Below, piece by piece: positions 5,168-33,622 of a stretch of 64,000 bases of DNA (position 1 is its first letter; the number at the start of each line of letters is the position of its first letter). The position numbers and the translations under genes are program-made. The stretch is taken from NCBI GenBank assembly GCA_030612885.1, contig JAUWMZ010000002.1:5834-69833 (forward strand). The letters are read 5' to 3'. A model generated the notes under the pieces. It did no database searches. It was not told where the DNA came from and saw only the letters and a program-made list of their open reading frames with translations. The DNA comes from Candidatus Nealsonbacteria bacterium. Lineage in GTDB: Bacteria > Patescibacteriota > Minisyncoccia > Minisyncoccales > JAGMDC01.

Positions 5168-5190
5168 TTAACGAGAACATTTCTCGTTAA
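5168..5190. repeat. REP-like perfect palindrome TTAACGAGAACATTTCTCGTTAA (family A), 5' of the RAYT gene
   Basis: Self-complementary 23-mer. The extended consensus AATTTAACGAGAAnnTTCTCGTTAAATT is shared with copies at 5389, 5932 and 42191. Confidence 0.8.
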
Positions 5191-5200
5191 ATTAAAATAT

Positions 5201-5935
5201 ATGTCAATAAAAAGACCCCTATTAATTAATGGTCAGATATATCATATTGTATTACGAGCAGTAGAGGGCTCAAATCTTTTCATTGATGATTATGATTATT
5301 TAAGAATAATTCATGACTTGTTTGAATTTAATGACGAAAATCCCGCTCCATCAAATTTTCGTGTTGCTCAACACTTTAGAGTATCTAATTTAACGAGAAA
5401 TGTTCTCGTTAAATTGGCAGAAAAGAAAGGAAGGGAAAAGAGAAAAATGTTAGTAGAAATTTTAGCTTTTTGTTTGATGCCAAATCACATTCATTTGCTG
5501 GTTCGCCAGCTAAGAGAAGGCGGGATTAGTAAATTTATGAGAAAGATCGGTGCAGGATATGGGCTTTACTATAATCAGAAATATGAAAGAAAAGGTCATC
5601 TATTTGGTGGAAGATACAAAATAGTCCTTATTGAGAATAATGAGCAGCTGAAGACAGTATTTGTTTATATTCATACAAATCCAGTTGCAATTATATTTCC
5701 TCATTGGAAAGAAAAGGGAATTAAAAATTTAAAAAAGGCAATGGAGTTTTTAGAGGCAAAATACAGATGGTCCAGTTATCCAGATTATTTGGGAAATACA
5801 AATTTTTCCTCATTAACCAATCGAGAATTTTTAACGAAAACAATGGAAGGGACAAAAGGCTGTAAAGAGTTTGTTAATGGTTGGTTAAAATATAAAAGGG
5901 AACTCGCTGGTTTCGAAATAGTAGCAATAAATTAA
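5201..5935 (+). CDS. REP-associated tyrosine transposase (RAYT; Y1 HUH transposase, IS200-like / Transposase_17 family)
   Basis: YHIVLRAV ... FCLMPNHIHLLV (HUH motif) ... GHLFGGRYK (catalytic Tyr) ... YIHTNPV ... WSSYPDYLG matches the widespread TnpA_REP family. The ORF-track start at 5084 reads through an upstream REP palindrome, so the ATG at 5201 (MSIKRPLL) is more plausible. The gene is flanked by REP palindromes at 5168 and 5932 and contains one internally. Confidence 0.75.
   Translation: MSIKRPLLINGQIYHIVLRAVEGSNLFIDDYDYLRIIHDLFEFNDENPAPSNFRVAQHFRVSNLTRNVLVKLAEKKGREKRKMLVEILAFCLMPNHIHLLVRQLREGGISKFMRKIGAGYGLYYNQKYERKGHLFGGRYKIVLIENNEQLKTVFVYIHTNPVAIIFPHWKEKGIKNLKKAMEFLEAKYRWSSYPDYLGNTNFSSLTNREFLTKTMEGTKGCKEFVNGWLKYKRELAGFEIVAIN
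5389..5411. repeat. REP-like palindrome TTAACGAGAAATGTTCTCGTTAA inside the RAYT coding sequence
   Basis: Same palindrome family. Translated in frame as NLTRNVLVKL within a variable loop of the transposase. Confidence 0.8.
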
Positions 5936-5954
5936 CGAGAAATGTTCTCGTTAA
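5932..5954. repeat. REP-like palindrome overlapping the RAYT stop codon
   Basis: TTAACGAGAAATGTTCTCGTTAA, with the TAA stop of the RAYT gene inside the left arm. Confidence 0.8.
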
Positions 5955-6124
5955 TTTTTGGATTGGGCGTTAAGATGTGTCCTTTTTTTAATTCTCAATC
6001 CTTGACACAATCTTAAGGGTTTGATAGGAAGAAAATAGAACCTTTTGAATAACATATGAGTTGAATGAAATATAGAGTAAAGGTTTAATAGGATGAAAAA
6101 ATTTAGGAGGTGAAAAAGAAAAAA

Positions 6125-10048: not shown

Positions 10049-13000
10049 ATGAAAAACAAAATTACCAAAATTAAAAAAAGAGACGGCAAAATAGTTAATT
10101 TTGAGCAAGATAAAATTACCAAAGCGGTTTATAAGGCCCTTACTTCCAGCGGCCAGGGCGATGGGAAAAAATCAAAAAGAGTTTCCAATAGAGTTCTTCA
10201 GATTTTGGACAGGAGGTTTAAGAAAGATGAAGTTCCTACTGTAGAACAGATTCAAGATATTGTTGAAGAAGTTTTAATTTTAGAAAATTTAGTAGAAACA
10301 GCTAAGACATATATACTTTATCGGGAGCAGAGAAGAAGAATAAGGGAAGCAATTACGGTAAGCGAGGAAGCAGTAGATAGAGTTGACCAGTATTTGGGAA
10401 AACTGGACTGGGAGGTTCAGGAAAATGCTAATATGGCTTTTTCCTTGCAGGGCTTGAACCATTACGGTGTCACTTATATCATAAAAAAATACTGGCTTAA
10501 TAAAATTTATCCCAAGACGATAAGAGAAGTCAATGAATCAGGCGATTTGCATCTTCATGATTTGGATTCCTTAGCATGCTACACTTTTTTTGGTAGAGAG
10601 GTAGTAATTGTCAAATTAAATGGTCAGATTAAATTAATTTCTTTGAAAGATCTCTATGAAGAACTTTCACAACCCGAGGTTTTGCTGAACAGAAAAGATG
10701 AGGCCTTTGCTAAGTATCCAAAAAACCTTTATATTTTAGATAAAAATGATTGGACAAAAGTTCCTCGAATGGTAAGGAAAAAAAGAAAAAGAAAAATGCG
10801 ATTTATCAAATCCGAACAGGGCAGGAGTGTTATTGTTACTGATAATCACCCCTTTATCATAAAAGGGAAGGAGAAAGAAAAGGAAATTATGGTTGAAGCG
10901 AAAAAAGTTAAAGAAAAAGAAAATTCAGTGTTTTCGGCTTTTATTCCAAATTTATTGAAATCTGAAAATTTATTTTCTAAAAGATATTTATATTTAGCCG
11001 AAGAGTTAGTTAATAAAAAATATCAAGACTTCTTTTTAGAAGGATTTGCGTGGCAGGACTTTATCAAAAATTGGCAAGGATCTCTAAAAATTGAAGGGAC
11101 ATTAAGTACCTCAAATAGCGCTAACAGTTTAAATAATAAATTGGAGCTCACTGAAGATTTAGGTTATTTAGTGGGTTTTTTTATTGCGGAAGGTAATTAT
11201 GATAGTTGGAAATTATGCATTACTAACGATGACAACAAAACAATTAAAAAAATTCAAAGAATTTGTGCTAATTTAGGAATAAGAAGCTACTTAAATAAAA
11301 ATAAAGAAAGAACTAAACAAATTAATATTAGCAGCAGCACCCTAAAACTTGTCTTTGAGAAAGTTTTTCAAATAAAGCCGTTAAGCATAAATAAAAATTT
11401 ACCGGCAGATATTCTAAACTATAATTTAGATTTTGTTAAAGGAGTAATTGCTGGAATTATTGACGGAGATGGTAGTGTATATCCAGATAACAAAGCCCAT
11501 GGCGCTTCCCAGGTTTTAATTAGAGTTTCTTCCAGGACAATGCTTGAACAAATAGCAACTTTACTTCAATTTTTCGGAATTATTGCCAGAAGCGGAGCAA
11601 ATATTGAAGATATCGGTAAAAGTAAGATTTTTCGAGGAAGAGAGATTGTCCAAAATTATCCTATCTACCGATTAAATTTTTCGAAAAAGAAAGGTGTTGA
11701 TTTTCCTTCTTCTAAATATAAACAGGCGAAGATAGCTGAAAGACATTGGAGAGCAGAAGAATACGGCTGGAATAAAGTTTTGAATAATAAATTTACTACA
11801 ATTCCAGATGATACAATTTACGATATTACCACTGACTCTTCTACTTTTTTAGCCAATGGGCTTTTGGTTCATAATTGTATGGGTTGGGATTTATATGATC
11901 TTTTACTGAAAGGATTTGGCGGTGTTTCAGGAAAAGTAGAAACAAAGCCAGCCAAACATTTCAGAGCAATTTTAGGTCAGGCAGTGAATTTCTTATATAC
12001 AGTCCAGGGCGAATGCGCTGGCGCGATCGCTTTTTCAAATTTTGATACTCTTTTAGCGCCTTTTATTCGCTACGACAATTTGAATTATCAGCAAGTGAAA
12101 CAGTCCCTTCAGGAATTTTTATTCAATATGGCCGTACCTACCCGGGTCGGCTTCCAATGTCCTTTTTCGAATGTCACTTTAGACCTTAAACCCTCTTCGG
12201 TTTTTTCTAATCAGCCGGTTATCATTGGCGGCAAACCGCAGAAAGAAACATATGGCGAGTTTGGGGAGGAAATGAAAATTTTTAACAGAGCTTTTTATGA
12301 AATAATGCTGGAAGGAGATAAATCAGGAAGACCGTTTCATTTTCCTATTCCAACTATAAATATCACTAAAGATTTTCCCTGGGATGAGCCGGCTTTTGAT
12401 GGTGTGTTTGAAGCATCAGCAAAGTACGGAACTAATTATTTTAGTAACTATATTAACTCGGAGATGAAACCAGAAGATGTGCGTTCCATGTGTTGTCGTC
12501 TTAGGTTAGACATGACAGAACTTCACAACCGGGGTGGCGGAGGGTTATTTGGTTCAGGAACATTAACCGGTTCAATCGGCGTGGTCACCATTAATTTACC
12601 AAGGATTGGTTATCTTTCAAAAACCAAAAAAGAATTCTTTAAACAACTTGAAAAAATGATGGATTTAGCAAGAGAAAGTTTAGAAATAAAAAGAAAAACT
12701 ATTGAGGATTTCATTTCCAAAGGTTTATACCCGTATTCCAAATTTTATTTATCAGGCATTAAAAAGGCGCGCAATACCTATTTCGCCAATCATTTTTCAA
12801 CCATAGGTTTGATAGGAACGAATGAAGCAATTTTGAATTTCTTAGGTGAAAACATTGGTTCCCGCAGAGGCAAAAAATTCGCCTTGGAAATTTTAGATTT
12901 TATGAGAGAGAAACTAGTGAAATATCAAAAAGAAACTGGCAATATTTATAACTTAGAACAAACTCCAGCAGAAAGCACAAGTTATAGATTGGCTTTAAAA

Positions 13001-13450
13001 GATAGAGAAAAATATCCAGATATAATTACTGCTGGAACCAAAGAAAATCCCTACTACACCAATTCTACCCAGCTTCCGGTTGATTATACAAATGATGCCT
13101 TTGAGGCGTTAAAACTTCAAGACGAAATTCAATGTAAATATACAGGAGGCAGCGTACTCCATCTATTTTTAGGTGAAAAAATTTCTGATATTCAAACCGT
13201 AAAGAGTTTAATTAAGAAAGTTTTTGAGAAGTTTCACCTGCCCTACATTACCATAACTCCCACTTTTTCCATTTGCCCGGTTCATGGTTATTTGAGCGGA
13301 GAGCATTTTGAGTGCCCAAAATGTCTTATTAAACAACCTTGCGAAGTTTATTCCAGAGTAGTAGGATATTACCGCCCCGTGACTCAATACAATGTCGGGA
13401 AGCAACGCGAATTCAAAGAGAGGAAGGAATTTAAGATAAAATCATCTTAA
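10049..13450 (+). CDS. nrdD: Anaerobic (class III) ribonucleoside-triphosphate reductase with ATP-cone, interrupted by an intein
   Basis: N-terminal ATP-cone, the LHLHDLD motif, a C-terminal glycyl-radical motif SRVVGYYRPV and a CPVHG...CPKC zinc ribbon. The extein is about 700 aa once the intein at 10577..11875 is removed. Confidence 0.85.
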   Translation: MKNKITKIKKRDGKIVNFEQDKITKAVYKALTSSGQGDGKKSKRVSNRVLQILDRRFKKDEVPTVEQIQDIVEEVLILENLVETAKTYILYREQRRRIREAITVSEEAVDRVDQYLGKLDWEVQENANMAFSLQGLNHYGVTYIIKKYWLNKIYPKTIREVNESGDLHLHDLDSLACYTFFGREVVIVKLNGQIKLISLKDLYEELSQPEVLLNRKDEAFAKYPKNLYILDKNDWTKVPRMVRKKRKRKMRFIKSEQGRSVIVTDNHPFIIKGKEKEKEIMVEAKKVKEKENSVFSAFIPNLLKSENLFSKRYLYLAEELVNKKYQDFFLEGFAWQDFIKNWQGSLKIEGTLSTSNSANSLNNKLELTEDLGYLVGFFIAEGNYDSWKLCITNDDNKTIKKIQRICANLGIRSYLNKNKERTKQINISSSTLKLVFEKVFQIKPLSINKNLPADILNYNLDFVKGVIAGIIDGDGSVYPDNKAHGASQVLIRVSSRTMLEQIATLLQFFGIIARSGANIEDIGKSKIFRGREIVQNYPIYRLNFSKKKGVDFPSSKYKQAKIAERHWRAEEYGWNKVLNNKFTTIPDDTIYDITTDSSTFLANGLLVHNCMGWDLYDLLLKGFGGVSGKVETKPAKHFRAILGQAVNFLYTVQGECAGAIAFSNFDTLLAPFIRYDNLNYQQVKQSLQEFLFNMAVPTRVGFQCPFSNVTLDLKPSSVFSNQPVIIGGKPQKETYGEFGEEMKIFNRAFYEIMLEGDKSGRPFHFPIPTINITKDFPWDEPAFDGVFEASAKYGTNYFSNYINSEMKPEDVRSMCCRLRLDMTELHNRGGGGLFGSGTLTGSIGVVTINLPRIGYLSKTKKEFFKQLEKMMDLARESLEIKRKTIEDFISKGLYPYSKFYLSGIKKARNTYFANHFSTIGLIGTNEAILNFLGENIGSRRGKKFALEILDFMREKLVKYQKETGNIYNLEQTPAESTSYRLALKDREKYPDIITAGTKENPYYTNSTQLPVDYTNDAFEALKLQDEIQCKYTGGSVLHLFLGEKISDIQTVKSLIKKVFEKFHLPYITITPTFSICPVHGYLSGEHFECPKCLIKQPCEVYSRVVGYYRPVTQYNVGKQREFKERKEFKIKSS
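10577..11875 (+). mobile_element. Intein (433 aa) with LAGLIDADG homing-endonuclease domain inside nrdD
   Basis: Starts at the Cys after HDLDSLA and ends at ...LLVHN, followed by the C-extein CMGWDL. Two LAGLIDADG-type blocks (LGYLVGFFIAEGN and VKGVIAGIIDGDGSV) are present. The flanking extein (HDLD ... C-MGWDL) is contiguous with conserved NrdD sequence. Confidence 0.8.
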
Positions 13451-26407: not shown

Positions 26408-26460
26408 TTTTCGCCAACTGACGAAACATTGCTAGGGAGGTTTTCGCCAACTAGCGAAAC
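26408..26460. repeat. Two imperfect 20-bp direct repeats TTTCGCCAACTGACGAAAC / TTTCGCCAACTAGCGAAAC
   Basis: Separated by 13 bp. Each contains a TTCG..CGAA inverted motif. Immediately upstream of the 380-aa orphan gene. Confidence 0.5.
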
Positions 26461-26483
26461 TTTGATATAAACCCATAAATAAC

Positions 26484-27626
26484 ATGCTGAGTATTCTGTT
26501 ATTAGATTGTTCAAAAGAATTAGCCGAAAAACTTAAACGTCAGGGTTTTGATGTTAGTTCGGGCACAATTGGTTTTTGTGATAAAAAAAGGCAACTCCCT
26601 TCTCAGGTATATGAAAAAGATATTTTTATATATAATCCGCGTTCTTTTAAAAAAGATAAACATGGATTTTATATAGAAAGCGATGATATAGAAGACTTAA
26701 CACCCGAATATAGTTTACACTATTTGTCAGAACACATTGAGAGAGGAGCTACGTTTTTAATTTTTATTAATCATGTATCTGATGATATAGAAAAACAAAA
26801 CGAAGCATATGATTGGATTCCATTTATGCCAGAAGCCTATTTTACAAAAGACCACCAGCCAATTGCTACGAGAGTTAGCAAAGACCTAAATTATAACTAC
26901 CTCGCACCCATTGTTTTACTAAAGAATCTGAGAATTCCTGTTTTACAAAAAATCAGCCCACCAAAACAAAAACAATACACATATACTCCAGATGTTTTTC
27001 ATCTATTTTTTAATAGAAATTACGAAATTTTAGGAGTTTTTATTAAACGAGGTTTGGGGCAATTAATAATTCTGCCCGAATATCAAAATAATGAAGAAAT
27101 CGTAGGTATTTTTCTTAATAGGGTAATGCCAAAAATTTACAGCAGAGAAACAAAAATTAATCTTATTGACCAATTTTTATCCCCCGAAGAATTAACCATA
27201 AGTAATGAGGTCCGGGAAGCAGAATGCGTTATTCAGGAGGCTAACGAGACATTAGAAGTTGCAAAAGAGAAATTAGCAAGTGCAAATCGTAATAAAATTC
27301 AAGTTATAAAAAATGATGAAACGGCTGTTTTAATACTAAATTATTACGATCTTGCTACACAGCAAGAAGATGTTGCACTTTTTTACCTCTATAAGATTAT
27401 TGAAGCTTTAGAAAAGAAATACGGTAGCGAAAAAGAGGCGAAAAGTATACTTATATGTAATAAAGAATGGAATCTAATAGGAAAAGTTGCGAATGTAAGT
27501 TATGCGGATATTCGGCATGCTCCTAAACCTGGCGAAAAAATTAGAGAGTGGACAGAAGAAGAAATCAAAAATTGTTTTACAGATGCTGAAAAAATAATCA
27601 ACATTTATTTATCAACCCTATTTTAA
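26484..27626 (+). CDS. Hypothetical 380-aa protein, no recognisable motif, adjacent to the R-M island
   Basis: Clean ORF with a C-terminal coiled-coil segment and no similarity I can assign to any family. Confidence 0.5.
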   Translation: MLSILLLDCSKELAEKLKRQGFDVSSGTIGFCDKKRQLPSQVYEKDIFIYNPRSFKKDKHGFYIESDDIEDLTPEYSLHYLSEHIERGATFLIFINHVSDDIEKQNEAYDWIPFMPEAYFTKDHQPIATRVSKDLNYNYLAPIVLLKNLRIPVLQKISPPKQKQYTYTPDVFHLFFNRNYEILGVFIKRGLGQLIILPEYQNNEEIVGIFLNRVMPKIYSRETKINLIDQFLSPEELTISNEVREAECVIQEANETLEVAKEKLASANRNKIQVIKNDETAVLILNYYDLATQQEDVALFYLYKIIEALEKKYGSEKEAKSILICNKEWNLIGKVANVSYADIRHAPKPGEKIREWTEEEIKNCFTDAEKIINIYLSTLF

Positions 27627-27644
27627 GACACTCCTAGAATGAAT

Positions 27645-27671
27645 TATGATTGATTTCCGAAGTCAATCAAT
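27645..27671. repeat. REP family B: ATGATTGATTTCCGAAGTCAATCAATA (7-bp stem TGATTGA/TCAATCA)
   Basis: An identical 27-mer recurs at 33547..33573. Confidence 0.65.
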
Positions 27672-27732
27672 AATAAATCACAAAAACGAATTAAATAGTT
27701 TTTTAGAAAAATCTAAGAATTTTTCTTTAGAA

Positions 27733-27778
27733 TAGATCCTACGAATCCTACGGGAATCCTGCGGGATGGCTTCCTGCA
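27733..27778. repeat. Three tandem ATCCTRCG(gga) units ending in hairpin CCTGCGGGATGGCTTCCTGCA
   Basis: gATCCTACGaATCCTACGGGAATCCTGCGGGATGGCTTCCTGCA. The 13-nt core CGGGATGGCTTCC is shared with the hairpin at 31946..31962 on the other side of the R-M island. Confidence 0.5.
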
Positions 27779-27808
27779 TGATTTTGGGTTATTCTTAATA
27801 AAGAGAGT

Positions 27809-28222
27809 ATGGTGGATAATCTTACAAAAAAACAGAGGAGTTTTTGCATGTCAAGAATTAGAAGCAAATGGACTTCTCCCGAAAAGAAAATACATAATTT
27901 TCTAAAAGGGTCTAAGGTAGTCCATAAGATGTATCCCAGAATTGAAGGAAACCCTGATATAGTAATAAAAAATAAAAAAATTGCAATCTTTTTTCATGGA
28001 TGTTTCTGGCATCAGCATCCAAAGTGTAAGTATGCTGTTAGGCCGAAGAGCAATAAAAAATTCTGGTTGCCGAAACTAAAAAAGAATGTTCAACGCGATA
28101 AAAAGAATATTAATTTTTTAAGAAAAAGAGGCTACAGCATTATTATTTTATGGGAGTGTGAGGTTAGGAAAGAAAAAAACTGGGAGAATACAAAAAGAAA
28201 TTTGTTAAAGAAATTATTATGA
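27809..28222 (+). CDS. vsr: Very-short-patch-repair (Vsr) T:G mismatch endonuclease
   Basis: Vsr signature FFHGCFWHQHPKCKYA, ~137 aa, directly upstream of C5-MTase genes. Confidence 0.8.
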   Translation: MVDNLTKKQRSFCMSRIRSKWTSPEKKIHNFLKGSKVVHKMYPRIEGNPDIVIKNKKIAIFFHGCFWHQHPKCKYAVRPKSNKKFWLPKLKKNVQRDKKNINFLRKRGYSIIILWECEVRKEKNWENTKRNLLKKLL

Positions 28223-29313
28223 AAAGGATAAAGAAATTAAACAATAAAGCAAATCCTACAGTGGTTGATTTATTCTGTGGTTGTGGGGGGCTTGCCAAGG
28301 GGTTTTCAGATGCTAGGTACAGAGTAATACTGGGAGTGGACAATGACGAATCCTCTTTAAGGTCTTTTAAAAAAAATATTAAAGGTAGTCAGATATTGAA
28401 TATTGATCTTTCAAGGCCTTCAGTTATGCGTAGTATAGAGGGAATTATTGGAAATAAGGGTATTGATGTAATTATTGCCGGTCCTCCCTGTCAGGGATTT
28501 TCTTTAACGGGTACTAGAAAATTCCATGATAAAAGAAATACTTTGTATAAAACAGTTTGGCGAGCAGTAAAAAAATTCTCCCCAAAGGCATTTCTTATTG
28601 AAAACGTTCCAGGCGTAACAAGTCTTTACGGGGGGGTGGCCAGGAAGGTAATAAAAAAGAGCTTTGAAGATCTGGGATATAATGTTGAAGGCCCTGAAAT
28701 ATTAAATGCAGCCGATTATGGAGTACCCCAAATAAGAAAAAGAGTATTTTTCGTAGGATTAAAACCGGAATTTGGTAGATTTGTTTTTCCTTCCGCGACT
28801 AACTCACCAGATAATTATGTTACATGCGGTGAGGCAATAGGTGATTTACCTGGAAGAGAAAAGGAGTTAGGGGTTGAGATAGATAAATATACTCTGCCTC
28901 CAAAAACCAAGTACCAAAGGTTAATGAGGAAGAACTATAGGGAACTCTATAATCACGTAGCTACGAATCATACTGAAATGGTGAAAAAAGTTATTGCTCT
29001 TGTGCCCCAGGGAAATAATCATAAAAGTCTGCCACCCGGTGTAGGCGAAAGCAGAAAGTTTAATGAAGCATGGACCAGATACGATAGAAGCAAGCCTTCG
29101 AAAACAATAGATACCGGACACCGTAACCATTTTCACTATAAGTATAATCGTGTACCAACAGTAAGAGAAAATGCCCGCCTTCAGTCCTTCCCTGATTTGT
29201 TTATTTTCTGCGGAACCAAAACAAGTCAGTATAAGCAGGTGGGCAATGCGGTTCCTCCTTTATTGGGTTATTCTCTTGCTGAAAAATTACGTTTTTATAT
29301 TATTGGGAGATGA
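28219..29313 (+). CDS. DNA (cytosine-5)-methyltransferase 1
   Basis: Motif I DLFCGCGG, motif IV GPPCQGFS, motif VI ENV and a C-terminal GNAVPP. Confidence 0.85.
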   Translation: MKRIKKLNNKANPTVVDLFCGCGGLAKGFSDARYRVILGVDNDESSLRSFKKNIKGSQILNIDLSRPSVMRSIEGIIGNKGIDVIIAGPPCQGFSLTGTRKFHDKRNTLYKTVWRAVKKFSPKAFLIENVPGVTSLYGGVARKVIKKSFEDLGYNVEGPEILNAADYGVPQIRKRVFFVGLKPEFGRFVFPSATNSPDNYVTCGEAIGDLPGREKELGVEIDKYTLPPKTKYQRLMRKNYRELYNHVATNHTEMVKKVIALVPQGNNHKSLPPGVGESRKFNEAWTRYDRSKPSKTIDTGHRNHFHYKYNRVPTVRENARLQSFPDLFIFCGTKTSQYKQVGNAVPPLLGYSLAEKLRFYIIGR

Positions 29314-30545
29314 AAACAGCAAACAAAAAATTCAATTTAATAGATCTTTTTGCAGGCTGTGGTGGTTTGACAGACGGGTTTGAACAGATGGATAAATACA
29401 ATACAGTAGCATGTATTGAATGGGAGACCGCTCCCTGTAAAACCTTAATTAGGAGACTTCATGACAGGTGGGATTATTCAGACGCTGAGAAAAGGGTTAT
29501 TAGATTTGATATACAGCGGACAGGAGAATTAATGAACGGATGGAAGAACGACGAACTATATGGTACAAATCAAGGTCTTAAAAAACTTGTTTTGGGTAAG
29601 AAGGTTCATTTGATTGTAGGAGGACCACCCTGTCAGGCCTACTCCGTCGCAGGCAGGATCAGAGACAAGAATGGTATGAAGGATGATTACAGAAACTATC
29701 TTTTTGAAAGCTATCTTCGTGTAGTAGAAGAATTCAATCCATTTCTTGTTATTTTTGAAAATGTTCCCGGAATGCTTACCGCTAAGCCTGGAGGTATTCC
29801 TGTAATAGAGAGAATAAAGAAAGCCTTTGACCAATCAGGCTATGAAATAGTGGATGATTTTAGGAAATATACCGTGATTAATTGTGCAGAGTATGGAGTT
29901 CCTCAGCTTCGTAAAAGAGTTATATTAATAGCACTGAATAAGAAATTTTTTAAAAATAATAATCAGAAATTGCTTCTTAAATTCTATAATGAAATAATGC
30001 CGGGATATAAAACAAAAAAGGTTTCCACTGTTCGTGATGCAATAAGTAATTTGCCTAAATTTACAGTTGCTCCTGAAAACTATTATGTTGAGGGAAAAAT
30101 TTATTCTCACAAACTTCATAAAAGCAAGATATTGAATCATGTCCCTAGATATCACAGTAAAAGAGATATTGATATATTTAGAGAACTAGCTGTAGACTTC
30201 GGCAACGGAAGGAAAATATACAAGTCAGCTGAAGATCTTAAGATTTTATATAAGGAGCGGACCGGTAAATTTTCAAATCTGCACAAATATCACGTATTGA
30301 ATTGGAATAAACCTAGCAATACGATACCTGCTCATCTATACAAAGACGGGTTAAGACACATACACCCGGACTTTAAACAAGCGAGAAGCATAACAGTTAG
30401 AGAAGCTGCCAGGCTTCAATCATTTGATGATAACTTTGTTTTTTTAGGTGGCCAGACTAATCAATACAAAATGATTGGTAATGCTGTTCCTCCTTTATTT
30501 GCAAAATTTCTTGCGGAAGGAGCCTATAGGCTTTTAAATTTTTAA
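29310..30545 (+). CDS. DNA (cytosine-5)-methyltransferase 2
   Basis: DLFAGCGG, GGPPCQAYS, ENVPG and a C-terminal GNAVPP. Start overlaps the stop of MTase 1. Confidence 0.85.
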   Translation: MKTANKKFNLIDLFAGCGGLTDGFEQMDKYNTVACIEWETAPCKTLIRRLHDRWDYSDAEKRVIRFDIQRTGELMNGWKNDELYGTNQGLKKLVLGKKVHLIVGGPPCQAYSVAGRIRDKNGMKDDYRNYLFESYLRVVEEFNPFLVIFENVPGMLTAKPGGIPVIERIKKAFDQSGYEIVDDFRKYTVINCAEYGVPQLRKRVILIALNKKFFKNNNQKLLLKFYNEIMPGYKTKKVSTVRDAISNLPKFTVAPENYYVEGKIYSHKLHKSKILNHVPRYHSKRDIDIFRELAVDFGNGRKIYKSAEDLKILYKERTGKFSNLHKYHVLNWNKPSNTIPAHLYKDGLRHIHPDFKQARSITVREAARLQSFDDNFVFLGGQTNQYKMIGNAVPPLFAKFLAEGAYRLLNF

Positions 30546-30549
30546 ACAA

Positions 30550-31533
30550 ATGCAGAAGGTTTATATTAGAAAACTTAATAGTCATGAACTTGGTTATAGA
30601 GGCGGTGAGGCAAAAAAAGCCGGTCGCTATATACTTGTTTCAAAAAAATGTGTCGCTTATTTTCCTCCATTAAGTGAACACATAAAGAACGACCACGTTT
30701 TTATCAGTATTATTCCGCCGAATTCCAATAAAAGCATCTTAACAAATTTTGTTTATCATAATAGTAAAATTATAGAGAAAAAGGTTGGTGGAAGAGATGA
30801 ATTTAGAATTTATCTAAACAAAGAGAATGATCCAGAACGCAATTTTTTTGAACCGAACGATATTGTTATTTTTCATCGATTAGAATCCCGTCGTCCTAAT
30901 GACCAGGAATATATTTATAGGGTTTACTATTTTCCTGTGAGAAATGTAGGAGAACACTATAAAAAGTTGGAAAAAATTCTCGCATCTGGTATTGTTTCAA
31001 ACTCACATGCAATTGTTCCAGTGAGCTCCATTCCTTTTGTAGGACTGAATCTTAGTCCACCATCTATAATCGTTGTTCCTCAGGAAGTTACAGAGGAAGC
31101 TTTTAAGGATCCGATTATTGAAAAGACCCTAGATATGGATATATTCTGTGGCATTGCAAAGAATAATTCATTTAGAGAGATAATAACATTCTTTTACAGC
31201 TACCAATGTGCTATTACCAGGACTTCAATCAGGCACGGTGAATTACTGAACGTTGAGGCGGCTCATATTATACCACGTGCCGATAAAGGTGGTAATAATC
31301 CTACAAACGGAATTGCACTGAATAGAGATCTTCACTGGGCATTTGATAAAGGCTTTTTTGTCATTGATACAGATTACAAGGTTTTAGTTCATCCGAAAGC
31401 TATTCATTTAACACCCTTGAAAAGTATAGCTAAAAAGACTATATTCTTGCCTCAGGATAAGAGAGCCTGGCCAAGTAAGGATTGTTTGGAATGGAGAAAA
31501 AAGAAATTTTACGGATTTTTTCTTAAATATTAA
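30550..31533 (+). CDS. Putative restriction endonuclease with C-terminal HNH nuclease domain
   Basis: HNH motif AAHIIPRADKGGNNPTNGIALNRDLHWAFDKG. Follows two m5C MTases and Vsr. Confidence 0.65.
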   Translation: MQKVYIRKLNSHELGYRGGEAKKAGRYILVSKKCVAYFPPLSEHIKNDHVFISIIPPNSNKSILTNFVYHNSKIIEKKVGGRDEFRIYLNKENDPERNFFEPNDIVIFHRLESRRPNDQEYIYRVYYFPVRNVGEHYKKLEKILASGIVSNSHAIVPVSSIPFVGLNLSPPSIIVVPQEVTEEAFKDPIIEKTLDMDIFCGIAKNNSFREIITFFYSYQCAITRTSIRHGELLNVEAAHIIPRADKGGNNPTNGIALNRDLHWAFDKGFFVIDTDYKVLVHPKAIHLTPLKSIAKKTIFLPQDKRAWPSKDCLEWRKKKFYGFFLKY

Positions 31534-31632
31534 GAACCATGTCATTATCAAAAGAATCGATAGAAAAATTTAAGAAGATTTGGAAGAAAGTCCGACTTTG
31601 ATAACTTTGAGTTATCAATTCTAAATAAAAAG

Positions 31633-31675
31633 AAGGGGAAATTTATTTAATTAAATTATTTCCCCTTTTATCTTG
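31633..31675 (+). terminator. Rho-independent terminator
   Basis: AAGGGGAAAT ... ATTTCCCCTT 10-bp stem followed by TTATCTTG. Confidence 0.5.
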
Positions 31676-31816
31676 ATGACCCGGAGGTTCTTGAGAATCC
31701 GCATAAGCGGGAAGTCTTTCACCTTTTGATTCCGCAGAGACTGGCGTCTCTGTTTCATTATCTCCTTCCTATCCTGTACGACTTAAGGAGCTCTCCAAGC
31801 GTTTTTTCGCAAGAAC

Positions 31817-31841
31817 CAGACAACCCGGGATTCGAACCCAG
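31817..31841 (-). other. tRNA 3'-fragment-like sequence (T-arm plus acceptor 3' strand only)
   Basis: The minus strand reads CTGGG-TTCGAAT-CCCGG-GTTGTCT-G, a canonical T-stem/loop (GTTCGAATC) plus 7-nt acceptor strand and discriminator. No complementary 5' acceptor strand, D arm or anticodon arm can be folded upstream. Confidence 0.35.
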
Positions 31842-31945
31842 TGCTCCGTCATAACAGCGGAAACAGCGCTTCCACAAACCTGCCCTTTTTATCCGAGCCA
31901 TTTACAGTTTATTCAATTTAATAATTTTGTCAAGCGAAAAAATCT

Positions 31946-31962
31946 CCGGGATGGCTTCCCGG
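31946..31962. repeat. Hairpin CCGGGATGGCTTCCCGG related to the 27758..27778 hairpin
   Basis: 6-bp stem, loop TGGCT. The 13-nt identity CGGGATGGCTTCC with the left-boundary copy brackets the Vsr/MTase/MTase/HNH block. Confidence 0.5.
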
Positions 31963-32045
31963 AGGAACTTTGACTATTGACAGGTTTAGATAAATAAGTA
32001 ATATCAAAATTAGCACAAATCAGCACAAATTAGGAGGTGAAATAA

Positions 32046-32654
32046 ATGTCTGTAAAAGAAAAATGGGTTAAAGAAGGGCTTGAAGACGAAGAAGAATTGA
32101 GAGTGTTAACGACAAGAGGTGTGGGACAAATTATTTTTTTGAACTACGCAGGAGTTTTTGAGATTAGAATGGAGAAGCCAAAATTGGCAGAACGAGTTTA
32201 TCGTTTTGAAAACGGAGAAATAACACCGCATACAGATTTTACTTTAGTTAGAATAGTTAATCTGGGTTTTTCCAGAGAACAGTTACTTACAGTGGCTCAA
32301 AACTATCCGTCTTGGGAATACTGTTTAGAAGGATTAGATCAGCCATACTCTCAAGATACGACTTTGATAGCTTTTGATTTCAAAGACAAAGAGGTTGTTA
32401 CTAATCGCGCAATACGAGGTAGATCCAGATATCATCTCATTGAATCTTGTTTTGATCGCCACTATCTAATCAAAGAAAACATTTTTTTTGACTCTCTCCA
32501 GGAGGCGAAAGAAGGGTGGAAGAGAATCGAAAAATTGGCAGGCACAACAGGTCATATTTTATTTTGCGCTCTCTTAGATGTAAGAGAGAACAAAATTTTA
32601 TCCAGAGCTATTTTTACAACATTGCGAGTGATAACCAAAGAAACTTACTGGTAA
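32046..32654 (+). CDS. Hypothetical 202-aa protein
   Basis: Strong RBS AGGAGGTGAAATAAATG and a clean ORF with no recognisable domain. Confidence 0.5.
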   Translation: MSVKEKWVKEGLEDEEELRVLTTRGVGQIIFLNYAGVFEIRMEKPKLAERVYRFENGEITPHTDFTLVRIVNLGFSREQLLTVAQNYPSWEYCLEGLDQPYSQDTTLIAFDFKDKEVVTNRAIRGRSRYHLIESCFDRHYLIKENIFFDSLQEAKEGWKRIEKLAGTTGHILFCALLDVRENKILSRAIFTTLRVITKETYW

Positions 32655-32906: not shown

Positions 32907-33488
32907 ATGGACAGAAAATATATTATCAATATTAGTTTTACTGTTTACAAAGTGACAGAGCTTTTTTCAGAAGAAGAACCATTGAGAGCAGAAATCAGAA
33001 CACGGGTAAATGACATTTTAAATGATTTATTGATTTTTCAAAATAATCAGGAAATAGGTGTTAAAACAAATCTGCTTGGAGAAGAAATAATTGAGAACAT
33101 AAAAGATATTAAAAAATATTTTGAATTAGCGATAATTAAAAATTTAGCAAATCCTGTTAATTTCTTGGTTCTTCAAAGAGAATATGATAAAATAGCTAAA
33201 GCAGTAAAAAAAGAACTGGAAGAAGGTTCTCAATCTTACAAACCCAAACTTCCTAAAATTAAAAGAGAAGAAATTTCTTCCAGACAAAAAGAGATATTAG
33301 ATATTATAAAAGAAAAGGGAAAAGTTCAGGCAGGAGAAATTCAAAATCGTTTTCCAGAAATTAGCAAGAGAACTATTCAAAGAGATTTAGCTTTTTTAGT
33401 AGAACAAGGCCTAATTCAAAGGAAAGGAGAGTTTAGCGAGCAGTTTTACTATGATTCAGGGTATGACAAGGGTATGACAAGGGTATGA
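32907..33488 (+). CDS. Protein with C-terminal DeoR-like winged-helix HTH domain
   Basis: The C-terminal SSRQKEILDIIKEKGKVQAGEIQNRFPEISKRTIQRDLAFLVEQGLIQRKGE matches the HTH_DeoR pattern. The 3' end is encoded by the tandem GGGTATGACAA repeats. Confidence 0.55.
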   Translation: MDRKYIINISFTVYKVTELFSEEEPLRAEIRTRVNDILNDLLIFQNNQEIGVKTNLLGEEIIENIKDIKKYFELAIIKNLANPVNFLVLQREYDKIAKAVKKELEEGSQSYKPKLPKIKREEISSRQKEILDIIKEKGKVQAGEIQNRFPEISKRTIQRDLAFLVEQGLIQRKGEFSEQFYYDSGYDKGMTRV

Positions 33489-33522
33489 CAAAGTTAGGAG
33501 GGGTATGACAAGGGTATGACAA
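33459..33522 (+). repeat. Five tandem copies of the 11-mer GGGTATGACAA, interrupted once by AGTTAGGAG
   Basis: Three copies at 33459..33491 and two at 33501..33522. The 9-nt interruption is Shine-Dalgarno-like. The array overlaps the last codons of the wHTH gene. Confidence 0.8.
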
Positions 33523-33546
33523 GCACTAATTATTATTATAATTCAT

Positions 33547-33573
33547 AATGATTGATTTCCGAAGTCAATCAAT
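33547..33573. repeat. REP family B second copy ATGATTGATTTCCGAAGTCAATCAATA
   Basis: Identical to 27645..27671. Confidence 0.65.
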
Positions 33574-33622
33574 ATATCCACTATTATATTGCTTGGTTTA
33601 GCCGAGCAATACAGCTGAAAAG

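Follow-up and report, generated by a model that had tools for sequence, protein, structure and literature searches.

A 25-nt sequence with the form of a tRNA T-arm and acceptor 3′ strand lies next to a block of restriction–modification (R-M) genes in a 64,000-nt stretch of the Candidatus Nealsonbacteria contig JAUWMZ010000002.1 (the window), which raises the question of whether it marks the place where these genes were integrated or belongs to something else. An earlier interpretation (the sequence-only reading) described positions 27733–31962 as an R-M island bracketed by two related hairpins, with the 25-mer as an attachment (att) remnant of tRNA-targeted integration. Our analysis points instead to three independent things that probably just lie side by side: an R-M cassette, hairpins resembling repetitive extragenic palindromic (REP) elements, and a resident small RNA (sRNA) gene whose product combines a tRNA-like domain with a mimic of the ribosomal L1 stalk. 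The value of the locus is in this RNA, not in the routine R-M cassette. Feature coordinates are collected in Table 1, and other loci are designated by L numbers.

The 25-mer is part of a minus-strand transcription unit. The start of the sRNA is placed at about 31899 by TTGACA-16-TAAACT (31933–31906), the region's best promoter match, and a long hairpin (31667–31633) followed by a U-run to 31625 forms its terminator. The two ends of the RNA are joined by a closing helix of 9 bp, P1 (31900–31892 with 31685–31677). Folded with the closing helix and the terminator, the sRNA has a z-score of −2.7; the G+C content of the segment is 43% versus about 31%. In L011 the region 31596–32032 is conserved at 88% identity, and in L090 the RNA part at 91%; neither of these relatives has the R-M genes. 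Promoter and terminator are conserved in all three species (the window, L011 and L090). The orthologues in L011 and L090 show 86–91% identity, equal to that of the flanking protein genes, while the neighboring spacer is less conserved (71–78%). The sRNA is a resident minus-strand gene that predates the R-M insertion.

A composite structure model based on the three sequences comprises P1, a tRNA-like branch, a helix P2, a small hairpin, an H76-like helix of about 15 bp and an L1-stalk head. In this structure 97.1% of cells are paired, versus 35–48% when it is slid. Several changes preserve the structure: a C-G pair of the T-stem becomes U-A in L090, a G·U pair of the acceptor stem is replaced with A-U and G-C, and the G·U pairs are strand-specific. 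An nhmmer search across about 200 loci recovered the sRNA only from the window (together with its duplicate contig L001), L011 and L090, and it falls in no Rfam family. Scanning viral sequences for a T-loop pattern yielded no sRNA homologue, and a cultured-phage database returned 23S contamination only.

The tRNA-like domain contains the 25-mer (31817–31841, minus strand) as its T-arm and 3′ acceptor strand. The sequence-only reading had recognized this canonical T-arm and the strand that follows it, but it also held that no tRNA body remained, and this second statement has to be corrected. A complementary 5′ acceptor strand (31885–31880) pairs with 31823–31818 in an acceptor-like stem of 6 bp; it is followed by a central hairpin and then by the T-arm (31841–31824; CUGGG-UUCGAAU-CCCGG, with the canonical UUCGAAU loop), all within the conserved transcription unit. 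ARAGORN predicted 0 tRNA or tmRNA genes in the 64-kb window, and Rfam gave no match at gathering score there; a weak alignment to a mascRNA-type cloverleaf (14.7–17 bits) was obtained for both the window and L090.

The second recognizable domain imitates the L1 stalk of 23S rRNA. A cmscan search aligned 31780–31708 (minus strand) with positions 2135–2206 of the LSU_rRNA_bacteria model at 37.8 bits (E = 2.5e-10), a score under the family gathering threshold; the match was filtered out in larger searches and appeared only when the 236-nt stretch was searched alone. In the L090 orthologue the same match extends into H76 (model positions 2119–2249; 34.9 bits, E = 2.2e-9). We aligned the L1-stalk regions of the three sRNAs, a true 23S gene (L326) and two extra-ribosomal copies from viral contigs. 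In these six sequences 95.4% of cells form standard pairs, versus 39–47% when slid, and 9 of the 18 pairs show compensatory double changes; the unpaired motifs AGGAUAGG, GGAG, UGAA, CGCCAG and UGAAAxAC are invariant. Relative to the true 23S rRNA, all four helices have been changed by compensatory substitutions, and every unpaired L1-stalk motif is kept. Such a combination of compensatory helix changes and invariant unpaired motifs argues for selection on a three-dimensional module and not for a recent copy. The element has the H77/H78 helices and conserved unpaired motifs of an L1-stalk module and is not a 23S rRNA gene: only 72–103 nt of the 2.9-kb 23S model are matched, no large-subunit match reaches gathering score in the window, and the true 23S gene of L326, used as a positive control, scores 2214 bits.

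The two viral copies differ in their surroundings. In a giant-virus metagenome-assembled genome (L304, IMGVR_UViG_GVMAG-M-3300009182-46_000001, 5683–5861), a genuine tRNA-Phe with anticodon AAA (54.8 bits) is followed after about 11–25 nt by a compact L1-stalk mimic (model positions 2125–2216; 51.2 bits, E = 8e-15) located outside any 23S gene. The viral contig L309 (IMGVR_UViG_3300000032_000059, 15–75) holds an isolated L1-stalk head of 72 nt, 94–96% identical to enterobacterial 23S rRNA and flanked by non-rRNA sequence; either this copy was captured from rRNA as a module or it is a chimera that arose in assembly.

The order of the two domains also invites a simpler explanation, namely that the sRNA region is a non-functional relic, either what is left of a decayed rRNA operon (a spacer tRNA and internal 23S sequence) or rRNA sequence captured by chance. 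With a tRNA-like part first and a 23S-like part second, the order does recall rRNA operons, the element is patchy among close relatives, and the high identity of the L309 copy to enterobacterial 23S over its 72 nt may reflect recent capture or a chimera. Against this, the element has its own strong promoter and terminator, conserved in three species, together with a helix that joins both ends of the RNA. Compensatory change in all four helices with the unpaired L1-stalk motifs kept is a signature of selection on the fold; moreover, the sRNA is as well conserved as the flanking protein genes and better than the neighboring spacer, and the part of the 23S model that is present is so short. Given the promoter, terminator, closing helix and covariation pattern, we regard the relic explanation as unlikely.

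What the sRNA may do is suggested by the ribosome itself, in which the L1 stalk is the binding site of protein uL1 and also makes a stacking contact with the elbow of the tRNA in the E site. The stalk docks the elbow via interdigitated T-loops, and the same kind of platform is used by RNase P and T-box leaders (PMC4810234). In the proposed architecture a long stalk (P1, P2 and the H76-like helix) would carry the tRNA-like branch, with its acceptor stem and T-arm elbow, and would end in the L1-stalk head mimic. Such an RNA would most likely bind uL1 and/or dock a tRNA elbow, either that of its own tRNA-like domain or that of a cellular tRNA, and in this way it would serve as a decoy or sponge, not as an element for coding or for integration. 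We tentatively hypothesize that it represents a new class of ribosome-mimicking RNA, a free-standing E-site “tRNA elbow + L1 stalk” that sponges uL1 or captures elbows in cis or in trans; at present we see this as possible but less probable than not. The idea is attractive because the Parcubacteria lineage often lacks uL1 or helix 78 and because the giant-virus tRNA with its L1-stalk mimic is analogous. Specifically, uL1 has been described as absent from a group of Parcubacteria, and helix 78 as absent from some bacteria of the candidate phyla radiation (CPR) (bioRxiv 10.1101/2022.01.07.475337).

Several observations weigh against this functional interpretation. In the tRNA-like domain neither a D-arm nor an anticodon loop is clearly recognizable, and a true tRNA-type elbow is for this reason only putative. 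Covariation within the sRNA family is thin, with 4 double changes and 32 of 500 shuffles reaching the observed score, a modest signal explained by the availability of only three closely related sequences. The fold also admits two local alternative pairings (133–190 versus 190–203 in sRNA numbering, counted from 31900). The sRNA is present in 3 of 6 close relatives and absent at the locus from L010, L091 and L093, so that in these it must be dispensable or located elsewhere. Finally, an 18-mer scan of metagenomes revealed no further homologue; among the matches listed there were only chance matches, mostly to one human-gut gene.

If the hypothesis is correct, the sRNA would be the fourth natural context for a tRNA-elbow platform of the L1-stalk type and the first that is homologous to the rRNA module itself. 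More generally, the sRNA suggests that rRNA modules can be redeployed as stand-alone RNAs, and through uL1 binding and tRNA-elbow docking it offers a testable handle on the ribosomes of CPR bacteria, in which the L1 stalk is often reduced. The giant-virus example suggests that the design of a tRNA combined with an L1-stalk mimic recurs in mobile genomes.

Several known groups of RNAs share parts of this design. L1-interacting mRNA leaders, which serve the autoregulation of rplK-rplA by uL1, are likewise extra-ribosomal imitations of the helix 77/78 site (PMC3616713). These leaders are about 37–41 nt long, lie directly upstream of rplK or rplA and contain the protein-binding core only, whereas the sRNA element spans at least 72–103 nt and includes the whole head. 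Unlike the leaders, the sRNA keeps the T-loop motifs that contact tRNA, is a terminated stand-alone transcript and is joined to a tRNA-like domain; there are no ribosomal protein genes among the window ORFs (open reading frames) scanned. Like the elbow-gripping RNAs (the 23S L1 stalk, RNase P and T-box stem I), the sRNA has the parts of such a platform, in its case the L1-stalk motifs AGGAUAGG ... UGAAAxAC (PMC4810234). What sets it apart is that its platform is homologous in sequence to the L1 stalk rather than convergent and is covalently linked to a tRNA-like partner, the docking itself being putative.

With YrlA and tmRNA the sRNA shares a stem between its 5′ and 3′ ends and a domain that imitates tRNA with a canonical T-arm (PMC4201824). 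YrlA RNAs, however, measure 80–130 nt, carry the motif GNCGAAN0-1G and have a Ro60 gene less than 4 kb away on their own strand. The sRNA shows none of these features, and Rfam gave no match. Identity with YrlA was rejected: the RNA is about 230–270 nt long and its 5′ strand reads GGCUCGGAU. No Ro60 (TROVE) protein is encoded in the scanned ORFs within 4 kb, and the ORFs in this range (the methyltransferases, the HNH nuclease, p202, a DeoR-type regulator, a sigma factor and a 255-aa ORF) are all located on the opposite strand. Unlike tmRNA, the sRNA contains no tag reading frame, is matched by neither ARAGORN nor Rfam, and does not have its T-arm at the 3′ end.

Other identities were considered for the sRNA region and rejected. 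A 35-codon ORF inside the sRNA had substitutions at codon positions 1, 2 and 3 in a ratio of 5/3/1, as counted by hand from two alignments, and it is judged non-coding because the changes fall mainly at positions 1 and 2; its GGAGA, resembling a Shine–Dalgarno sequence, is accounted for by the L1-stalk consensus (GGGAGG...UGAA). Resemblance to SRP RNA, RNase P RNA and 6S RNA was at the level of motifs judged by eye, with no Rfam match at E <= 10. For a permuted tmRNA, the 5′ acceptor strand proposed on the downstream side of the T-arm did not hold up in L011, and neither ARAGORN nor Rfam gave a match.

Table 1. Features of the R-M and sRNA locus and its surroundings (window coordinates)
Feature	Position	Strand	Basis or remark
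Single-gene mobile module, left part of the slot; 380-aa protein gene at 26484–27626	26442..27629	+	blastn homology
H2 hairpin, left copy (TGATTGA-TTTCCGAAG-TCAATCA)	27635..27672	+	38-nt repeat, 89% identical to the copy at 33537–33574
H1 hairpin, left copy (CTGCGGGA-TGGCT-TCCTGCAT)	27759..27779	+	Terminator-like on the plus strand; abuts left edge of the cassette
Mobile R-M cassette, extent	27782..31590	+	DNA homology to copies elsewhere
Vsr very-short-patch repair endonuclease, 137 aa	27809..28222	+	PF03852 1.4e-20; TIGR00632 113.5 bits; PADLOC Vsr 1.2e-24
5-methylcytosine (m5C) DNA methyltransferase M1, 364 aa	28219..29313	+	PF00145 3.1e-68; TIGR00675 197 bits; PDB relatives M.HaeIII, M.HhaI
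m5C DNA methyltransferase M2, 411 aa	29310..30545	+	PF00145 4.5e-56
Restriction endonuclease, 327 aa	30550..31533	+	PF13391 HNH_2 2e-12, residues 220–273
Truncated small-ORF remnant, about 17 homologous codons	31539..31601	+	L200 has a 59-aa ORF here after the nuclease gene
Resident sRNA gene, about 270 nt (about 230–270)	31625..31900	−	Promoter, terminator, fold, orthologues
L1-stalk mimic (23S rRNA H76 tip, H77, H78; E. coli about 2100–2180)	31708..31780	−	cmscan LSU_rRNA_bacteria
tRNA-like domain of the sRNA	31818..31885	−	RNAalifold and pair counts
H1 hairpin, right copy; palindrome resembling a terminator in both directions, located where the sRNA and p202 promoters diverge	31944..31964		Minus-strand terminator-like, T6 tail
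p202: promoter TTGACA-16-TAATAT (31977–32004), 5′ untranslated region, gene 32046–32654 (orphan 202-aa protein)	31977..32654	+	Core flank right of the slot

The R-M genes, unlike the sRNA, are foreign to this place. Homologues of the flanking genes assign the window to Patescibacteria/Parcubacteria, close to Nealsonbacteria and Minisyncoccales. The locus was compared in 80 related species, which share the order ClpB – Trypsin_2 – variable segment – DeoR-type regulator – sigma factor – 255-aa protein – 1278-aa protein. The slot between ClpB-Trypsin_2 and the p202/DeoR-sigma genes is hypervariable, its size between Trypsin_2 and DeoR ranging from about 0.25 kb (L062, L075) to about 9 kb. Not one of the 80 species has Vsr, M1, M2 or HNH genes at the locus, and the slots of the closest relatives hold unrelated cargo, which identifies the R-M genes as foreign here: L011 carries 7 ORFs (zinc-ribbon, transglutaminase-like, Cys-rich and TPR proteins) with no relation to R-M genes, while L010 and L090 contain a Y1 transposase, an ORF of about 200 aa and an LTD protein of about 1600 aa.

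The same Vsr-M1-M2-HNH block occurs elsewhere. By blastn, window positions 27782–31590 correspond to 249–4056 of L200 at 88% identity, and 27781–31532 to L198/L199 at 78.6%. In L200 the nuclease is 91% identical, and the block is followed by a 59-aa ORF and a HEPN_AbiV gene; in L198/L199 the nuclease is 79% identical, and the block lies between glycosyltransferase and SNase genes; in Omnitrophica (L202/L203) the nuclease is 46% identical, and the block stands beside a large serine recombinase. Orthologues of the trio M1, M2 and nuclease were also found in two viral contigs in shuffled order. Because the block is missing from the locus in related species and recurs in unrelated contexts, the cassette is a horizontally acquired, self-contained mobile unit of four genes. 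Its left edge is at 27781/2. On the right, homology to L200 ends at 31590, inside the small ORF, and core homology to L011 begins at about 31583–31596; the right recombination junction is thus at about 31590 and cuts the small ORF. The cassette has probably recombined into the hypervariable slot beside the previously mentioned imported module at 26442–27629. An AT-rich direct repeat of 21 nt flanking it (27704–27724 and 31561–31581, 18/21 identical) was rejected as within chance for this composition.

These junctions bear directly on the original proposal of an integrative island that had entered a tRNA gene, left a 25-nt att scar and was delimited by the two hairpins. Apart from the foreign origin of the R-M genes, a few facts are in line with it: in the window, L011 and L090 the variable DNA begins within about 35–60 nt of the point where the gene for the tRNA-like RNA has its 3′ end, which resembles the known preference of islands for tRNA/tmRNA 3′ ends; a tRNA-3′-like 24-mer lies about 220 nt upstream of the L198 cassette copy; and the Omnitrophica copy adjoins a serine recombinase. 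Against this, domain scans of the ORFs between 26484 and 33488, which cover the block and its neighbors, detected no integrase or recombinase. The window has a single copy of the T-arm 13-mer, and the search for a parental tRNA, suggested by the sequence-only reading, gave neither a tRNA gene nor a second copy of the fragment within the window. The expected empty site was borne out only in part: the R-M block is indeed absent from the 80 related species, but the 25-mer and the right hairpin, which should have gone with it, are retained in relatives without R-M genes, within the segment 88% conserved in L011 and also in L090. The block is also not bracketed as had been stated, since its actual junctions are 27781/2 and about 31590; the left hairpin (ending at 27779) does abut the cassette edge, but the right one stands about 355 nt beyond the junction, on the far side of the resident RNA gene. 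The hairpins, in addition, form a dispersed family that is absent from other cassette copies. We consider the tRNA-targeted-island reading largely refuted and such an origin of the block most improbable. The tRNA-3′-like 24-mer of L198 (GGTTCGAGTCCCGATAAGAGAGCA, about 1895–1925) is unrelated to the only tRNA (Val) on that locus, whose cassette copy is the one with 79% identity.

The hairpins themselves are real. As had been reported, the 13-mer CGGGATGGCTTCC stands at 27762 and 31947, in each case as part of a hairpin whose loop is TGGCT; the window has no other exact copy. The repeat alone, however, is weak evidence, as the window contains 502 repeated exact 13-mers versus about 254 in simulation (G+C-rich ones: 2 versus 0.3 expected). 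Since chance 13-mer repeats are common, the significance of the hairpins derives from their family in relatives and not from the bare 13-mer. This family, H1, has the core CGGGATGGCTTCCCG, with five copies in 12.6 kb of L011 and others in L012, L090 and L093; members from L011, L012, L052, L090 and L093 show compensatory stem changes, which in L012, L090 and L093 affect the outer stem. About eight copies are clustered around a Y1 transposase gene in L052. In the window, L011, L090 and L093 the right H1 copy is located just upstream of the p202 −35 box, and its stem shows compensatory C/G swaps among them; at this position the hairpin of L091 is unrelated, and L010 lacks one. Many copies show the A-run/stem/T-run layout of bidirectional terminators. 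The other copies of the cassette are not flanked by H1. Being a dispersed family whose right copy belongs to the core of relatives without R-M genes and which is missing from other cassette flanks, H1 does not mark island ends; it is a REP-like, terminator-like palindrome family of the host lineage. The left copy, which ends 2 nt short of the cassette homology, may at most be a recombination-prone spot. The sequence-only reading had itself named a ubiquitous, syntenic gene block and a common 13-mer as signs against an island: the first is not observed, the block being absent in the 80 species, and as to the second, the 13-mer is present just twice in the window, but its hairpin family is dispersed in relatives.

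The proximity of such palindromes to Y1 genes raises another explanation for the cassette, that the hairpins are ends or targets of a Y1 transposase (IS200/IS605- or REPtron-like) which moved the R-M block by single-strand transposition. H1 and H2 are in fact the cognate palindromes of Y1 genes in relatives. In L052, H1 lies upstream and downstream of the Y1 gene and, as an inverted pair, in-frame inside its coding sequence; in L090, H2 is found upstream and in-frame inside the gene, and H1 downstream. The window also has a Y1 gene with a palindrome of its own, both window H1 copies are on the same strand, as are the left and right ends of IS200/IS605 elements, and the left copy ends 2 nt before the cassette homology begins. 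Nevertheless, the sRNA gene stands between the right copy and the junction, this copy is part of the core also in relatives that lack the cassette, the other cassette copies have H1 at neither end, and the sole Y1 gene of the window uses a different palindrome. A right junction inside a truncated ORF is typical of illegitimate or homologous recombination and not of precise transposition. We therefore judge Y1-driven transfer of the cassette to be quite unlikely and retain the view of H1 as a dispersed palindrome family.

The likeness of H1 to REP/RAYT systems consists in short G+C-rich palindromes dispersed between genes, with compensatory stems, and in flanking Y1 (HUH) genes. The differences are that the RAYT model is matched below its cutoff (for the window Y1 protein the top NCBIfam match is NF047646, with 45.4 bits versus a cutoff of 80), that a palindrome is found in-frame inside each Y1 gene, that many copies have the layout of bidirectional intrinsic terminators, and that just two H1 copies are present in 64 kb. 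The exact 27-mer of H2 is likewise found at two places only in the window (27647 and 33549). The Y1 genes with their palindromes occupy 5170–5956 of the window (gene at about 5203–5935), 10735–11721 of L052 and 675–1485 of L090. The window gene has its own third palindrome, TTAACGAGAAATGTTCTCGTTAA, at 5170, 5392 and 5934, and the in-frame palindrome within the Y1 genes sits between the N-terminal strand and the HUH motif.

The four genes of the cassette constitute a complete m5C-type Type II R-M module in the order V-M1-M2-R. On this point the sequence-only reading was correct, as family matches (PF03852, PF00145 twice and PF13391) confirm, and so it was on the overlapping start and stop codons: Vsr, M1 and M2 are joined by ATGA overlaps. 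Vsr passes the curated cutoffs (TIGR00632, 113.5 versus 97.85 bits; PF03852, 73 versus 27 bits). M1 and M2 share only about 29% identity; both match PF00145 over the full length, and the motifs FxGxG, PCQ, ENV, QxRxR and GNAVPP are visible in each. As in known systems, a Vsr gene accompanies the m5C methylases; the prefix “V.” is standard nomenclature for Vsr genes in this position. Judging from its family, Vsr would repair T:G mismatches arising from m5C deamination. Taken as a whole the cassette is ordinary, one more Vsr/m5C system and a routine addition to Type II R-M systems.

Homologues of the nuclease number at least 540; they are about 330 aa long and come from many phyla. A PDB sequence search with it gave no match. 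An AlphaFold (AF2) model built from 52 homologues (pLDDT 92.3) predicts an N-terminal B3-like DNA-binding pseudobarrel (residues ~1–160) and a C-terminal HNH domain (~205–320); the residues H239, N253 and H262 are invariant in the 52 homologues. With the N-terminal half, Foldseek retrieved BfiI-C (3zi5, target-normalized TM 0.70), EcoRII-N (3hqf, 0.61) and plant B3 domains, and with the C-terminal half the HNH domains of VcaM4I, TagI and ScoMcrA. The enzyme thus resembles BfiI and EcoRII in joining a pseudobarrel of the BfiI-C/EcoRII-N type to a separate catalytic domain, and differs from both in that this domain is HNH (PF13391) and not PLD (BfiI) or PD-(D/E)XK (EcoRII). A restriction enzyme combining a B3-like domain with HNH was not described in the literature searched; the architecture may be new and could offer a new specificity.

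In the AF2 model recognition and cleavage domains are separate, as in Type IIS/IIA enzymes. The latter are usually accompanied by two strand-specific methylases (PMC4081073), and the nuclease here similarly adjoins two separate methyltransferases. The earlier suggestion that two methyltransferases point to an asymmetric site, with one strand methylated by each, is plausible on this comparison, and it is strengthened by the B3-like recognition domain combined with HNH, a modular plan similar to Type IIS. The nuclease would read DNA through its monomer-type B3-like (EcoRII-N/BfiI-C-like) domain and cut through the separate HNH domain, and the two dissimilar m5C methyltransferases would most likely protect one strand each.

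Alternatively, the HNH protein could be a modification-dependent nuclease (Type IV/IIM-like) and not the methylation-blocked partner of M1 and M2. Its HNH fold is nearest to the modification-dependent enzymes VcaM4I, TagI and ScoMcrA, and the top NCBIfam match, under the cutoff, is a phosphorothioate-dependent restriction enzyme. Yet orthologues of both methyltransferases adjoin the nuclease in every context examined, across phyla and with the order shuffled, which argues for a methylation-blocked system, while PUA-HNH modification-dependent enzymes typically do not have methyltransferase neighbors (PMC6765204). The N-terminal domain is also B3-like and sequence-reading, not a base-flipping sensor of the SRA, EVE or PUA type. 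Modification dependence is accordingly very unlikely. The k-mer composition of the window shows general palindrome avoidance (GATC, CTAG, TGCA) and depletion of AGNCT/CTNAG, a pattern not assignable to a recent R-M acquisition. Across the whole window, strong under-representation (z down to −11.8) affects the 4-base palindromes GATC, CTAG, TGCA, CATG and GGCC as well as the 5-mers AGNCT and CTNAG, a hint that the lineage was earlier under other restriction pressures.

The left part of the variable slot is occupied by a second imported unit. Positions 26442–27629 are 89% identical to L005–L007 and 83% to L003/L004, exactly over the extent of the module, and its 380-aa gene is absent from the locus in all 80 related species. 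Homologues of the 380-aa protein (about 146 at E <= 0.001) are distributed across phyla, Giovannonibacteria and Terriglobia among them, and the protein has no Pfam, NCBIfam or PADLOC match. Copies elsewhere stand in unrelated contexts among R-M, ThsB-TIR, Mrr and recombinase genes, and on account of these neighbors we propose it as a candidate defense gene. Between Trypsin_2 and this gene there is a tandem pair of 27-nt units (TTTTCGCCAACTGACGAAACATTGCTA; 26408–26467), each with a small hairpin; a similar unit precedes an unrelated ORF in L011 (6552–6604). On the other side of the slot, short tandem repeats GGGTATGACAA(G) (33459–33523) span the DeoR-type gene at its 3′ end; the H2 hairpin and the sigma-factor gene come right after them.

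The orphan protein p202 belongs to a small family, with 24 representatives among 1.8 billion proteins; it has no Pfam or NCBIfam match, and its AF2 model (pLDDT 46) is unusable. The p202 promoter and 5′ untranslated region (31977–32045) are near-invariant in six relatives (the window and, at the equivalent stretch, L010, L011, L090, L091 and L093). This 5′ region holds a duplicated AGCACAAAT motif and is more conserved than the p202 gene itself. In L327 an apparently complete tRNA gene (about 313–388) lies on the same strand ahead of a distant p202 homologue (profile E = 1e-43), and a link between the p202 family and tRNA or tRNA-like genes is possible.

Elsewhere in the window (10049–13450), an anaerobic ribonucleotide reductase NrdD is split by an intein with a LAGLIDADG homing endonuclease domain.

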